Source: Botryllus schlosseri (Eukaryota). From it: a stretch of 64,000 nucleotides of DNA. Of this stretch, positions 17,571 through 32,879 are shown piece after piece (position 1 is the first letter of the stretch; every line of letters starts with the position of its first letter). The DNA lies in the NCBI GenBank assembly GCA_051294905.1, contig CM119371.1, forward strand, positions 4,156,001 to 4,220,000. The letters run 5' to 3'. A model generated the notes under the pieces. The model worked only from the letters and a program-made list of their open reading frames with translations, did not search any database and was not told the DNA's origin. The position numbers and the translations under genes are program-made.

Positions 17571-18990
17571 TTATATACCCGTAGTTTGAGTACACACGAG
17601 GCTAAACCCAAGTTACACCTTTGCGGTCATCGACTCGCGACCGACCAAGTTCACATCACAGAAAGTGACGGAACACTTCAGGGTATGTAAACCCCCTATG
17701 TTTCGATACGGAAATTTACCGTAATGCGTTCAACTAAATTATTCTTCCAAAGTATTGGCGGCTCCTTGAGTCTATTTCACTTGACTGGTGTTCGGCTGAA
17801 CTACGGAGTGAAATCCCCAGCAACTATAAAAGGTGATGCGCAAATTTCTTCCCAGCTCTTAATAATGGGAAATATTAGAATTATGGATTCCGTTGGTGAC
17901 GGGCATAATATACCCGAGAAGACTCGATATTTATGCCACTGGTAGATTGAAAAATGTATCACGTATATATAACATGTAGCTTGTGGGACCTAAACGTGAT
18001 TAAAACTCATCTTTAAACCTACGCAAGAGGCTGATTGTGACTTCCGCTTCGTGATTTGGATAGTTGGCTCATCAATATAGCATCACTTCGTTATGGTTAA
18101 GTACATGAGTAAATAAAGATTATACAATCCACTCGTGTTGACGATTTTACGCGCATAATAATCTTGTCGACGAGTCCGGGAGTGCTACTAATTAGCAACT
18201 CTCTGATCTGTCATGAATAATTAAATACCATCGCCTATCAACGCGTCTTTAGTATCTTCAACGACGATTTGTGCAAGTCACAATGTCCGAGTTTTTATGG
18301 AGTATGTGATATAATAACGGCATGTTCAGGTGCTTCCAACCTTTTGTCTTATACAACACGTATCTTCTGATGGTTATGTTCAAGTGTTGGCGGAAATCAA
18401 TTACCCATATACCCACGCGTTGCACATGTTTGCGGACATTCGATGTCATTCAGTTTCGCGACGTCACTCTTTAATCACTCATCACACTCTTAACGGCATT
18501 GGCTTCGAGCCATCGAGAGATAGGAGCCAACTCATTCCAGGTACGGGGCTCGATAGTTAGACTAGAGATGAAGCTAGGCCATAAGTGATGATACATCTAC
18601 CGTGTCAGGCGTAATGCAGATGCGATTGTGTACGCCGACCGATAGTATAGTGCACACCGGGTCCATTGTATATGTGATTCATCAAGCCAGCGGAACTAGG
18701 TTTGTTGGAGACGTGGCAAATCGCGCAGCGAGCCCGCGGCAATTGATAACGCTGGTCGACCTCATTTCCGTTTTCTGGCCCAAACAATGACTATTAAGTC
18801 CATTTCCGTACGCTGATCACGAATACGAAGTCACCCCCTGCCATTACGTAATTAGTTACTAAATTTTTATTCGACTTTTCTGAGGAAAAAAAAAATTGTG
18901 TCCTGATGAGTGAATCCCGACAGTAGTATAGTCGATCGGTCGCAGATCGTAATGGGTTCTTATGGGCGGGGTGGCGAGCTAACGAGAAAC

Positions 18991-19097
18991 CGGGGGTGGC
19001 GAACTAACGTTTTCGTCTTATGGCGGGGGTGGCGAACTAACGTTTTCGTCTTATGGCGGGGGTGGCGAACTAACGTTTTCGTCTTATGGCGGGGGTG
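18991..19097. repeat. 33-bp subterminal tandem repeat, three perfect copies (mirror at 31634-31740)
   Basis: Unit CGGGGGTGGCGAACTAACGTTTTCGTCTTATGG read directly. Confidence 0.92.
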
Positions 19098-22000
19098 GCA
19101 TGCGGCTATTGTGTCTTATGGATGCGGTAGTGATTCGTACTTTCGTTTATAGACTGCGGGCGGCATGTCGTACTTTCAGCAAAAAAGGTGTGAAATAGTT
19201 TGCTAAGTCTAGGAATTACTCTCATGGTAATGTTTGAGTAATTAGATTACCCCAGAGCCGGCGTAGACGGTGATTCGAATATCAACAATAGTCGCGTTCA
19301 CAAACTAACACTCCAAAAAGGTGTGAAATATTGGTAAAATCCCGCGATCGCTCACAAGATAATACCTGATACATAACCATCGCTCGCGACTCGCTGTTAC
19401 ATACATGCCGATCGTTGACAATGTAATATTCTGGTAATTAGTTTACCACAGAGCCCGCGTAGACGGTGATACCAACAATAGCCGCGTTCACAAACTAACA
19501 CTTCAAAAAGGTGTGAAATAGGTTGCAAATCCCACGATCACTCACGAGATAACACCTAAGACATAGCCATCCCTCGCAACTTGTTTTTACATACATTCCA
19601 ATCGCCACAATGTAATATTTTGATAATCGGTATGTCACAGGAACTGGATTTCATTGGTAAAATTTAATAAGTAACGAATAACAGAACCGTCGCAGACGAT
19701 GATTCGAATACCGACAAATTCTCACTTATTTCTGATCCCACCCAAATCCTTTGCGAAGTTGACGCTTATTCGAAAAGGTGTGAAATAATTGTAAAACCCT
19801 ACGTCGCTGACAGGATAATGCATCAGACATAGCGATCTAGTTATAGCACGGGTCGGAATCCATTCGGGCTCTATAGGTAAATTGAGATAATCCGAAACCG
19901 AATAATTTGACTTTGGCGTAGTGTGAATTGAAATAGGATTGACTAACAAGACTACCAAATTTCAACCCGGTCATATTTAGAGATTATACGCATATTGATT
20001 TGAAACAAGTAATGAAACCTTACAACTCTATTCACGATCCGGCTTTCCGTTTGTCAAAGAGACATTTTAACATCTTACCATACTCAAAAGAATTATTCAT
20101 AATATCAACCGGTGTTAAAAATATAGTTTTCACTTACTTGATTATACCACTACAACTCGCAAACTTGAATTAATTCATCCTGGTTGTATTCATATGACCG
20201 ATAATTTTTATTCAACTGTAAAGGCCGTTACTACACTGCAAGACAAAGTATTTACTAATCGGTACATACACGACTTGACATAACCTATTACATTTTGAGT
20301 ATACGAGATTTGAATGTCTGAACAATAACTGAGAATTAAATGATCACGAGTAATCCGTATATTACAGCGTAAAAGATGTTGGAATGTCAGCAACTCTGTA
20401 CGGTCATAGTTACTACCACTAATTTACCCGGCCAACTCGTCATGATCATTCCTGAAATCTACACAAACATGACCACTGACTAGAGTTAACCACAAAATAG
20501 CATCGAGTTTTAAATCCAGTTGTAGCTTACGTATTATTTGAATGCGGGTTATGTTTTGTTATAATTGGGTGTACGGATAAAGTATTAGGTCTCGACATTT
20601 TAACATTTTGCCATACTCAGTCAATCAGGAAAACATTGGCAAGTAAATCCGTTTGTAACTTACCCGACCAACTCAAGCAGTCAGCCAAGCATACACGAGT
20701 CCATACAATCACTAAAACCTAAAATCCATAACAAGCTCGGTTGTATTCATATCCCGACACATCTTTTTTATTCAACTTTAAAAGTCGTTACTATTCTGTA
20801 AGATAGAGGAATTACTACGCGGTATATTCTGCAAGACAAAGTAATTATTACTCGATATATTTTGTAAGACAAAAGTAATTACCACTCGGTGCAGGTGACT
20901 TGAGATTAACATAATATGTTTGAGTATACGAGATTTGAAAGTCTGATCAACGTATAGTTGCGAGTTCATTTCTTACAATCGAACGCTGGTGTTATATCGA
21001 AAGTTACCATTCTGTGAACATAAGGATTGATACATTGATGTGCCATATGTAATAGTTGATCATGACTTGATTATTAAATTATTCGTGTTAATTAGACCCG
21101 GCGTTGTGGTAAAGGTTATTATGACAACAACAATCTTTTCAGTACCGTTGTTATTAACATATCGAGTTGTAAACTATACGTGTCTGAAATGTTCATGATT
21201 GAAAAATTATTCCACCTTGGTACATATCACTCTGCGCATCGCGGATATCAGAAAATATTTTACAAATGTAATTGTTTCCAGTAACCAAGACTAAAGATGA
21301 AACAACAATTTCGTTTGCTGATTAACAACCGGTGCAATACTTTATTGTCGGAATCTGCGACATCGAATTGAAACATACGCACATTACGCAGTACGAAAAT
21401 ATCACTTTGGGCTCCGGGGCGGTGTCATTTAATCTGTGTTAAACTCTGTTCACACTCTCTGTCGAAAATGCGTGAAATGTAAAAACATTACGAGGTCACA
21501 CTCTAGACTTTGATCATCAAAAAAGTAAATAGAGGTATCTTTACTGGATGGATTCTATTCAACTGGTCTTGGTTAATACAAAACCCATCACAATAATATC
21601 GAACTATGTGCTACACTGAAATCTACAAAAATGTGTTTGTATTGCTGTTCATAGTAGCGATATCGATTTGAACCTCCAGAATAATTGTCATCATGTAACC
21701 AAACTAAGGAAAGTTGTTGTCAATTTGTATGATGTTCACTGAATGCATACTAGAACTAATTGTGTAACGCACACGACCAGAGAAATTGGAAATTTTCCCA
21801 TTGTCATTCGTCACAATACTCGGTCACTAAAATACGTTACTTGGATGTGATTGAATCGCTGGTAGTTAACAGGATAAATCAAACCCCTAAGAAATTTCAC
21901 TCACTCATTGGATATTAAACAGTGTCGCCTAATCGGTGTGGGTCGCTTTTTCTAAATACAAATCATACCTGGCCATCGCTGATAATTAACTCGGTAAATC

Positions 22001-31800: not shown

Positions 31801-31809
31801 TATACTACT
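25857..31809 (-). repeat. Right inverted arm (5,953 bp)
   Basis: Reverse complement of 18922-24874, with eight substitutions found by eye and no net indel. Confidence 0.97.
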
Positions 31810-32879
31810 CCCGACAGCAATTTCGGAATCAGCATCATCAATTTAGGTAAACTCAATTATTCGTTCCAAAACATCAAAACAAGCCGAAAAAAATCGACCA
31901 GAGCTATCCGATTTCGCAATCTTCTCAGCTGGAGATCCCGTCGCTGTCGCAGTTACATTGTGCATTGCAAAGTGCACTGACGATCACGCTAATCGGCAAC
32001 ATGCCACTCCCCAATCAGACGCGCGCAACACCGATCATGCGTCCTATCTAACTGCAATCGGGTGCCTGCGCCCGAGCGGCAATTGCGAAAGCACGGGGCT
32101 CCGCGTTTCAAAAGGCGGTGATTTCGGGCCCCAACCCTTCTCTGACTACGGGCTTGTTGTTCATCAAACTTATTATCTTCGCCCCAAGTAAAATACATAT
32201 CTTTGTGAAATTGTCCTAAAGGCCGGTTATTTTGAAAGTACGTTCGAACATTGTGCCTATTTCTGGCGTCATGGGTCATTTTGTTAGTCGCAAAGGCCCA
32301 ACTATATTTTACGCTCAGAACTCCGGTCCATAACCCCGCGTTTACTTCTCTCGGCCCCCGCCTAATACTATCGAGAAATATCTTTATTACTTATCTCTCT
32401 ATTAACAGTTTAGTTTGTCCTGCCACGCGATAGTTGTTATACACGATTTTTGGTTATTTCGTCGAGCAACACCTCTAAAATATTTTTTAGACCCGTTATT
32501 GCAGTACTTTTTGTAAATAACATATATTAATAAGAATACGACAGACATGCATACTGACTTTGGATCAGTTCGCCATTTACGGTGTTCTGCGATGTGCTGT
32601 GTTCATTGAAAATCGTCATCTTTAGTTCTGTGTTTCCTGATCCGATCGGCAGAGCTTGTCTGTTGGTAGTTGACGACAAGATCGCCGTATTGTCCCTCGG
32701 ATCAATTGTTGTTGGTCCAGATGTGCCATCTCCTGATGAAATTGAAGTGGTTATTCTGGTACTTACCTTTTGATCATGCTGTTGGATTTGGCGATCCGGC
32801 CCGGTGATGGAGAGGTGTGTATTCGTCACATAATACGGATCTGTTTCGATTGTTCTTACAGCCCGCTTTGTTTCCATCA

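Follow-up and report, generated by a model that had tools for sequence, protein, structure and literature searches.

A 12.9-kb palindromic element with Polinton-type ends in Botryllus schlosseri and the high-copy sequence family to which it belongs

We describe a palindromic element of 12,888 nt in a 64,000-nt stretch of the Botryllus schlosseri genome (assembly GCA_051294905.1, contig CM119371.1, positions 4,156,001 to 4,220,000 of the forward strand). This whole stretch is called the window below, and positions are counted from its first nucleotide. The element consists of two arms (18922-24874 and 25857-31809) that form an inverted pair of 5,953 nt each, with a loop of 982 nt between them; in a repeat-finder analysis of the window, this pair far outranks every other inverted pair. 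We interpret it, with a probability of about 0.55, as a member of an abundant non-autonomous family of the Polinton/Maverick type. In such a family, ~6-kb non-coding terminal inverted repeats (TIRs) would enclose a core of ~1 kb that carries a single small conserved gene, and the elements would be moved in trans.

The element starts with AGTAGTATAGTC... and ends with ...GACTATACTACT. AGTAGT at 18922 and ACTACT at 31809 thus provide the (AGT)2...(ACT)2 end motif, and CCCGAC abuts the element on both sides (18916-18921 and 31810-31815), forming a perfect 6-bp target-site duplication (TSD). The terminal 28-mer occurs in the window at the two element ends only (expected 0.00). An initial annotation, made from the letters of this DNA, had pointed out both the ends and the flanking CCCGAC, and they can be read directly at 18916-18922 and 31809-31815. 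These features match the hallmarks of Mavericks as given in the available part of one study, namely 5'-(AGT)2//(ACT)2-3' or (AG)3 end motifs and perfect 6-bp TSDs (PMC8097293). A 6-bp TSD combined with a long TIR is likewise called typical of Mavericks in the accessible text of another (PMC3014272). A local inverted segmental duplication of host DNA, which we also considered, is contradicted by the Polinton-type ends and the TSD.

Direct comparison of the left arm (plus strand) with the right arm (minus strand) reveals eight substitutions (four transitions and four transversions) and no indel, that is, 99.87% identity. The initial annotation had described the arms as reverse complements around a 982-bp spacer; its coordinates and its loop stand, but the arms are not perfect copies. 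Its statement that TIRs make up 92% of the element agrees with our computed arm share of 92.4%. The transition from arm to loop is abrupt. When the two ends of the loop (24875-25856, with a (CA)9 run at 25436-25453) are globally aligned in inverse orientation, the score is -20 against -15 +/- 6 for shuffled sequences, so that no residual inverted symmetry is detected inside the loop by this comparison. No microhomology was found at the junction of arm and loop. At the outer side, both termini and their 33-nt arrays are symmetric down to the last base.

Each arm is a giant, non-coding TIR made of internal duplications. Its Polinton-type terminal region (18922-19148, plus strand, mirrored at 31583-31809) comprises AGTAGT, an array of CTTATGGCGGGGGTGG and a block of ~60 nt, and includes a subterminal 33-nt tandem repeat of 3.3 copies with 100% matches (18991-19099, mirrored at 31632-31740). 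Further inside are three to four modules of ~190 nt (19227-19803, mirrored at 30928-31504), a 120-nt pair, segments repeated 560-625 nt apart and a 21/41-nt tandem array (23688-24142, mirrored at 26589-27043), which is the deepest part of the family in the sequencing runs described below. A search of the arm for a nested TIR element yielded no convincing internal TIR pair.

The minus strand of positions 1-10716, 8.2 kb from the palindrome, belongs to part of an autonomous Polinton. This part includes an rve integrase frame running off the start of the window (3-827, E 1.9e-16), an A32/FtsK-like packaging ATPase with a Walker A motif (1558-2166) and an open frame of 1,300 aa with a protein-primed PolB (pPolB) domain (3381-7283), all on the minus strand. 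Capsid genes of this Polinton were not seen in the window. The underlying domain scan covered 21 of the 29 window frames of at least 110 aa, together with the open reading frame (ORF) of the loop; the eight omitted frames lie mostly antisense in larger ORFs. The ATPase has a 98%-identical fragment and 22 relatives in public assemblies, and an alignment-based search found no relative in viral contigs. The Polinton ends with ...ACTACTACT at 10716, and this terminus, AGTAGTAGT, carries six subterminal repeats of 32-33 nt. Its flank (10717-11097) is repetitive, with inverted paralogues at 35987-36362 (90.5% identity) and 37713-38010 (86.7%), so that the autonomous Polinton likewise sits in repeated DNA.

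The outer ~227 nt of the palindrome are homologous to the last ~289 nt of the autonomous Polinton (10428-10716). The alignment of the two ends has 173 identical columns out of 241 (72%), and their architecture is alike: in both, AGT repeats are followed by ~35 nt, then by an array in which CTTATGGCGGGGGTGG recurs every 32-33 nt, then by a near-identical block of ~60 nt. In the window, 15 matches to the motif CTTATGGNGGGGNKG occur where 0.04 would be expected, and all but one of them lie at the three Polinton-type ends. Judged from these alignments, the link of the palindrome to Polintons is real, and stronger than the initial annotation could see: to the typical ends and the 6-bp TSD is now added the homology with the end of an autonomous neighbour. 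The neighbouring Polinton is a candidate source of the machinery that moves the element, or a relative of that source.

The homology stops at the terminal region: within the window, the interior of the arm shows nothing similar to the autonomous Polinton. In arm and loop, stop-to-stop frames reach at most 118 aa (24605-24961) and ORFs starting with ATG at most 95 aa. A Pfam scan of the 35 longer of the 61 ORFs of at least 45 aa in the left arm and loop gave no credible match (best E 0.23). With tblastx, arm and loop matched the rest of the window in the subterminal repeats only, and when 25 frames of the neighbouring Polinton served as tblastn queries, the element yielded the same repeats plus one weak match to the loop ORF. 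No gene for pPolB, rve integrase, capsid, protease or packaging ATPase was thus found in the element by Pfam, tblastx or tblastn, and Rfam and tRNA scans of it gave no match. Its ends share homology with an autonomous Polinton of this genome and no Polinton gene was found in it, so that the element fits the initial proposal of a non-autonomous Polinton-type element. It is nevertheless not devoid of genes, since a conserved ORF is present in the loop.

This ORF, an orphan of 91 aa, lies on the minus strand at 24926-25201, stop codon included. A TATAAA at 25317, 116 nt upstream, may have a role. A HMMER search of 1.84 billion representative proteins returned one true relative (91 aa, 73% identity); two further matches were repeat proteins and were discarded. 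A word-indexed search identified four protein clusters of 90-91 aa, 67-92% identical to the loop ORF and each covering 100% of the query. In their alignment, 48 of 91 columns are invariant, all four relatives share the start and the stop, and the sole indel is one in-frame codon. Alignment-based locus searches found no relative in viral contigs or in prokaryote genome contigs. Searches of Pfam and PHROGs with the protein gave nothing credible, and a PDB profile search reached a best E of 0.5. In the Atlas, the recognition score fell below the threshold, and the matches to phage-tail proteins were set aside as untrustworthy.

We also considered whether the loop ORF is a fragment of the packaging ATPase. 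Its product (24929-25162) aligns with residues 78-145 of the neighbouring ATPase, around the Walker B region (1732-1962), with 30% identity over 69 aa (E 1e-5 in pairwise BLASTP, 0.001-0.002 in tblastn). Profile comparison with hhalign does not support this relationship, giving it a probability of 3% when the single ATPase sequence is used and of 0.3% with a 21-sequence alignment of the ATPase family, and we do not retain this unproven origin.

The genomic setting of the loop ORF is informative about the build of the element. Seven members of the ORF family lie on contigs of 922-2005 nt, and six of these contigs measure 922-1192 nt, about the length to which a 982-nt loop between repeated arms would assemble. 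In two DNA runs (X1 and X5, below), the summed depth over the loop ORF is ~0.4-0.5 of that over the adjoining arm, as one loop per two arms would give. These observations suggest that arm, loop and arm, with the 91-aa gene, are the normal build of a family. Two ~6-kb TIRs around a ~1-kb core are probably its standard form, and we infer that the palindrome is a family trait.

The size of this family was surveyed in sequencing runs with a 7.76-kb query that runs from the left flank through one arm and the loop to 204 nt into the second arm, at a threshold of 90% identity. Three runs are DNA: X1; X5, from another sample and study with the same organism label; and X9, with another organism label (hereafter organism B). 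Contigs matching the query at 90% identity or more number 129,350 in X1, 9,666 in X5 and 1,321 in X9. In X1, 36,033 of them match at 99% or more, 50,974 at 95-99% and 42,343 at 90-95%. Only 3,299 of the 129,350 X1 contigs extend partly off the query, which indicates that the copies are colinear with the element described here; the recurrent loose ends seen in family contigs reflect local divergence, not boundaries. Summed word depth in X1 is 35,000-517,000 over the arm and 23,000-70,000 over the loop, against 1,883 in the flank bin 18559-18817, but such sums are not copy numbers, as the counting program itself warns, and to that extent they count less in favour of our interpretation. In an RNA run (X23, ~6% of which was covered), 156 reads match, 155 of them lying only partly on the query and 95 at 90-95% identity; they are uninformative on the expression of this copy. 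As the number of distinct contigs and their spread in three DNA runs show, the arms and the loop belong to a large, diversified, high-copy family that includes many near-identical copies, and the element is thus no one-off.

We considered two alternative accounts of the arms. In the first, the palindrome is a one-off, a defective genome of the copy-back kind: while a non-palindromic member of the family underwent protein-primed replication, a template switch from 25856 to 24874 would have duplicated one end, and the product would then have been integrated, so that this copy alone would have the palindromic build. Copy-back-like products are known in the incomplete particles of adenovirus and in the hairpin derivatives of the yeast plasmid pGKL1. 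Like the palindrome, they have one genome end duplicated in inverted orientation, as from strand switching or fold-back; unlike it, they are extrachromosomal laboratory observations, while the palindrome is integrated, has a TSD and belongs to a large family. We found nothing relevant on palindromic derivatives of protein-primed plasmids in the open full-text literature. A copy-back origin would be in keeping with the 99.87% identity of the arms in a family in which many members diverge by 1-10%, and with an abrupt inner boundary that has no decayed symmetry beyond it. There is also a precedent for the growth of TIRs into the body of a Polinton: in the available part of a study on butterflies, TIRs of ~2 kb duplicate the hexon and adenain genes (bioRxiv 10.1101/2025.02.07.637071). 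However, no microhomology marks the switch point, and both the ~1-kb contigs carrying six of the seven other loop-ORF sequences and the loop-to-arm depth ratio near one half are better explained by an architecture shared within the family. A non-palindromic master with another second end was not seen either, though no search for one was possible. We therefore regard a one-off copy-back event as unlikely.

In the second account, an ordinary element was inserted with its TSD and the TIRs expanded after integration, when a chromosomal event (template switching at a fork, inverted duplication or gene conversion between the ends) replaced one side of the element with a copy of the other. Such an event would preserve the TSD and the ends, and the eight substitutions indicate that two separate arms have been present for a while. 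The duplication would nevertheless have had to stop exactly at the terminus, given that the symmetry of termini and 33-nt arrays extends to the last base, and the ~1-kb loop-ORF contigs elsewhere would be left unexplained. We hold this account to be highly improbable.

Two contigs from the DNA runs may represent the site without the element. One, from X5, is 660 nt long with a depth of 74 (50 for the adjacent unique contig); it matches 18585-18923 and continues for 322 nt that are unmatched. It shares exactly 30 nt (k-1) with the contig before it, from which it follows that the unmatched part lies to the right. The other, from X9, is 693 nt long with a depth of 2, matches 18755-18923 and continues for 520 nt unlike the arm. 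Both matches stop at 18923, that is, after the TSD and AG; the right flank also starts with AG after its CCCGAC and then diverges from the arm. This stopping point is the one predicted for an empty site, whereas a filled site would continue into the arm. On the basis of these matches, the two contigs are a probable candidate empty site, seen in two of the three DNA runs. If they are allelic, the insertion would be polymorphic within the species and absent from a related organism, and hence recent. The longest ORF across the reconstructed empty site has 58 aa, so that no exon was obviously hit. The initial annotation had held that its proposal would fall if there were neither an empty site nor another copy with its own 6-bp TSD and the structure proved to be a local inverted segmental duplication; present data offer a candidate for the former, and no second copy with its own TSD has been seen.

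Several observations weigh against the interpretation as a mobile, non-autonomous family. The identity of 72% between the end of the palindrome and that of the neighbouring Polinton is modest, and this neighbour is possibly not the cognate helper. Neither the terminal 22-mer nor the TIR motif nor a 24-mer from the interior was found in scans of viral and metagenome contigs, and no second copy with its own ends and TSD was seen. The letters of the candidate empty-site contigs beyond 18923 were not seen, and the left flank is moderately repeated, which makes paralogous sites possible. The relatives of the loop ORF are predicted proteins, and their ascertainment favours intact frames; the protein itself is an orphan, whose AlphaFold model is uninformative (pLDDT 37.5).

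A further point is that none of the reads or contigs seen spans arm, loop and arm or the filled flank junctions, so that the palindrome rests on the assembly. High-copy repeats are prone to mis-assembly, and a fold-back chimeric long read or a mis-join could have duplicated one end of a single-armed element. Such an artefact, on the other hand, would not yield matching CCCGAC on both sides, nor flanks that are apparently contiguous in other runs. Eight substitutions without any indel are unlike read error and argue for two real copies of the arm. The loop is asymmetric, 982 nt long and endowed with a conserved ORF, and the window has no N bases. An assembly artefact seems to us very improbable.

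The last point concerns depth along the arm. Depth in the terminal bin is 5-10 times lower than in the interior (in X1, 17,918 against at least 100,000), and in X9, from organism B, the terminal bin has a depth of 59 and the flank of 39-65, compared with 108-4,305 for the interior. The interior may thus have a separate origin, as a repeat family enclosed by Polinton ends: the outer ~230 nt would be Polinton-derived, and the 5.7-kb arm interior would come from another repeat family of the host. Apart from the roughly tenfold rise of depth just inside the terminal region and the contrast in organism B, where the interior is raised and the terminal bin is not, the lack of similarity between the interior and the autonomous Polinton is in line with such a capture. 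No nested TIR element or boundary is found inside the arm, however, and the recurrent loose ends there are again attributable to local divergence. We consider the capture of a foreign repeat very unlikely. It is compatible in any case with a non-autonomous Polinton-type family, as it concerns only the origin of the stuffer.

A mechanism can be proposed for such a non-autonomous family. A Polinton rve integrase supplied in trans may recognize the (AGT)2 ends together with the subterminal 33-nt repeats, and would insert the whole 12.9-kb unit, creating the 6-bp target duplication. The protein-primed polymerase of a Polinton would copy the element from its ends and could start at the AGT repeats, by analogy with adenovirus, which initiates by a repeat-based jump-back. 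In the course of strand displacement, the displaced strand could fold back on itself, with one arm serving as template or repair partner for the other, and the two arms would be homogenized in this way. The contrast between the 99.87% identity of the arms and the divergence of 1-10% of many family members from this copy is likely the result of recent insertion combined with fold-back homogenization. For the origin of the 6-kb arms, the candidates are an ancestral copy-back event, copy-back in this particular copy, deletion from a Polinton with long TIRs and growth after integration.

Non-autonomous Polintons are a known Repbase category, defined by Polinton ends and TSD without the enzymes and presumed to be moved in trans. 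We know of none that has been described as a near-perfect palindrome with multi-kb arms. Foldback (FB) transposons have 9-bp duplications and arms made almost wholly of short tandem repeats. The palindrome resembles them in form, with very long inverted arms of internal repeats, a short middle and little coding capacity; yet its TSD is 6 bp and its ends are of the Polinton type, and we do not place it among FB elements, a class named in the accessible text of PMC6431247. In the open full-text literature, which leaves Repbase Reports and most subscription journals outside, we found neither a palindromic Polinton derivative with multi-kb arms nor a high-copy non-autonomous Polinton family; non-autonomous Polintons are mentioned once in passing in the available part of PMC5499653.

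Compared with autonomous elements, the palindrome is like Polintons/Mavericks in its end motif, its 6-bp TSD and its possession of TIRs, but the Pfam, tblastx and tblastn scans found in it none of the eight core genes. According to the available part of PMC8097293, intact vertebrate Mavericks have TIRs of 46-1,447 nt (mean 402) and a total length of 12,723-24,620 nt. The 12,888 nt of the palindrome fall just inside this range of length, whereas its TIR of 5,953 nt is about four times the reported maximum. Fewer than 10 Polintons are counted in Anolis, as far as the accessible text of PMC3014272 goes, and in contrast to such low-copy Polintons, the sequence of the palindrome is very high-copy. 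Another parallel is with the butterfly Polintons already mentioned, in which TIRs have extended far into the body of the element and Polinton-related structural variants devoid of polB still appear mobile (bioRxiv 10.1101/2025.02.07.637071, available part). Their gene-bearing TIRs of ~2 kb indicate that TIR growth happens in this superfamily. They differ from the present case in that these TIRs carry capsid and protease genes and are a minority of the element, whereas the arms of the palindrome are non-coding, three times longer and 92% of the element.

Elsewhere in the window, a second and unrelated foldback-like structure is formed by inverted arrays of 9-10/19-nt repeats at 43236-43507 (14 copies) and 46450-46924 (25 copies), with ~2.9 kb between them that hold a 121-aa frame (44888-45253). 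A 515-aa open frame lies at 40627-42174 (plus strand), and its 15 C2H2 zinc fingers point to an animal host. The observed/expected CpG ratio is 1.0-1.2 across the window and is the same in the element as in its flanks, giving no sign of decay through germline CpG methylation.

A more specific form of the non-autonomous reading is that the family is a Polinton satellite rather than transposon debris, a linear palindromic replicon of 12.9 kb that keeps only Polinton ends and the 91-aa gene and draws on a helper for pPolB and terminal protein, for integrase and perhaps for capsid. We find this distinctly unlikely on present evidence. Were it true, the 6-kb arms would be a stuffer bringing the element up to the lower size limit of Mavericks, and the family would have become more numerous than its helper by several orders of magnitude. 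Its 91-aa protein could in that case act as a factor specific to the satellite, for instance one that interferes with the helper or hijacks it. Transcription through the arms would produce a 6-kb hairpin that could supply small RNAs for silencing the whole family.

The way of life of Polintons/Mavericks, viral, transposon-like or both, is still debated, and the open literature contains hardly any description of their natural non-autonomous derivatives. If the palindrome were an assembly artefact or a local event, it would be of little interest in this respect. A recently inserted, possibly polymorphic, high-copy family that has kept only the ends would mark the cis sequences sufficient for Polinton replication and integration, and the element would provide a natural record of the growth of inverted ends in Polintons. 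Such a family would also show that Polintons can be parasitized and hugely outnumbered.

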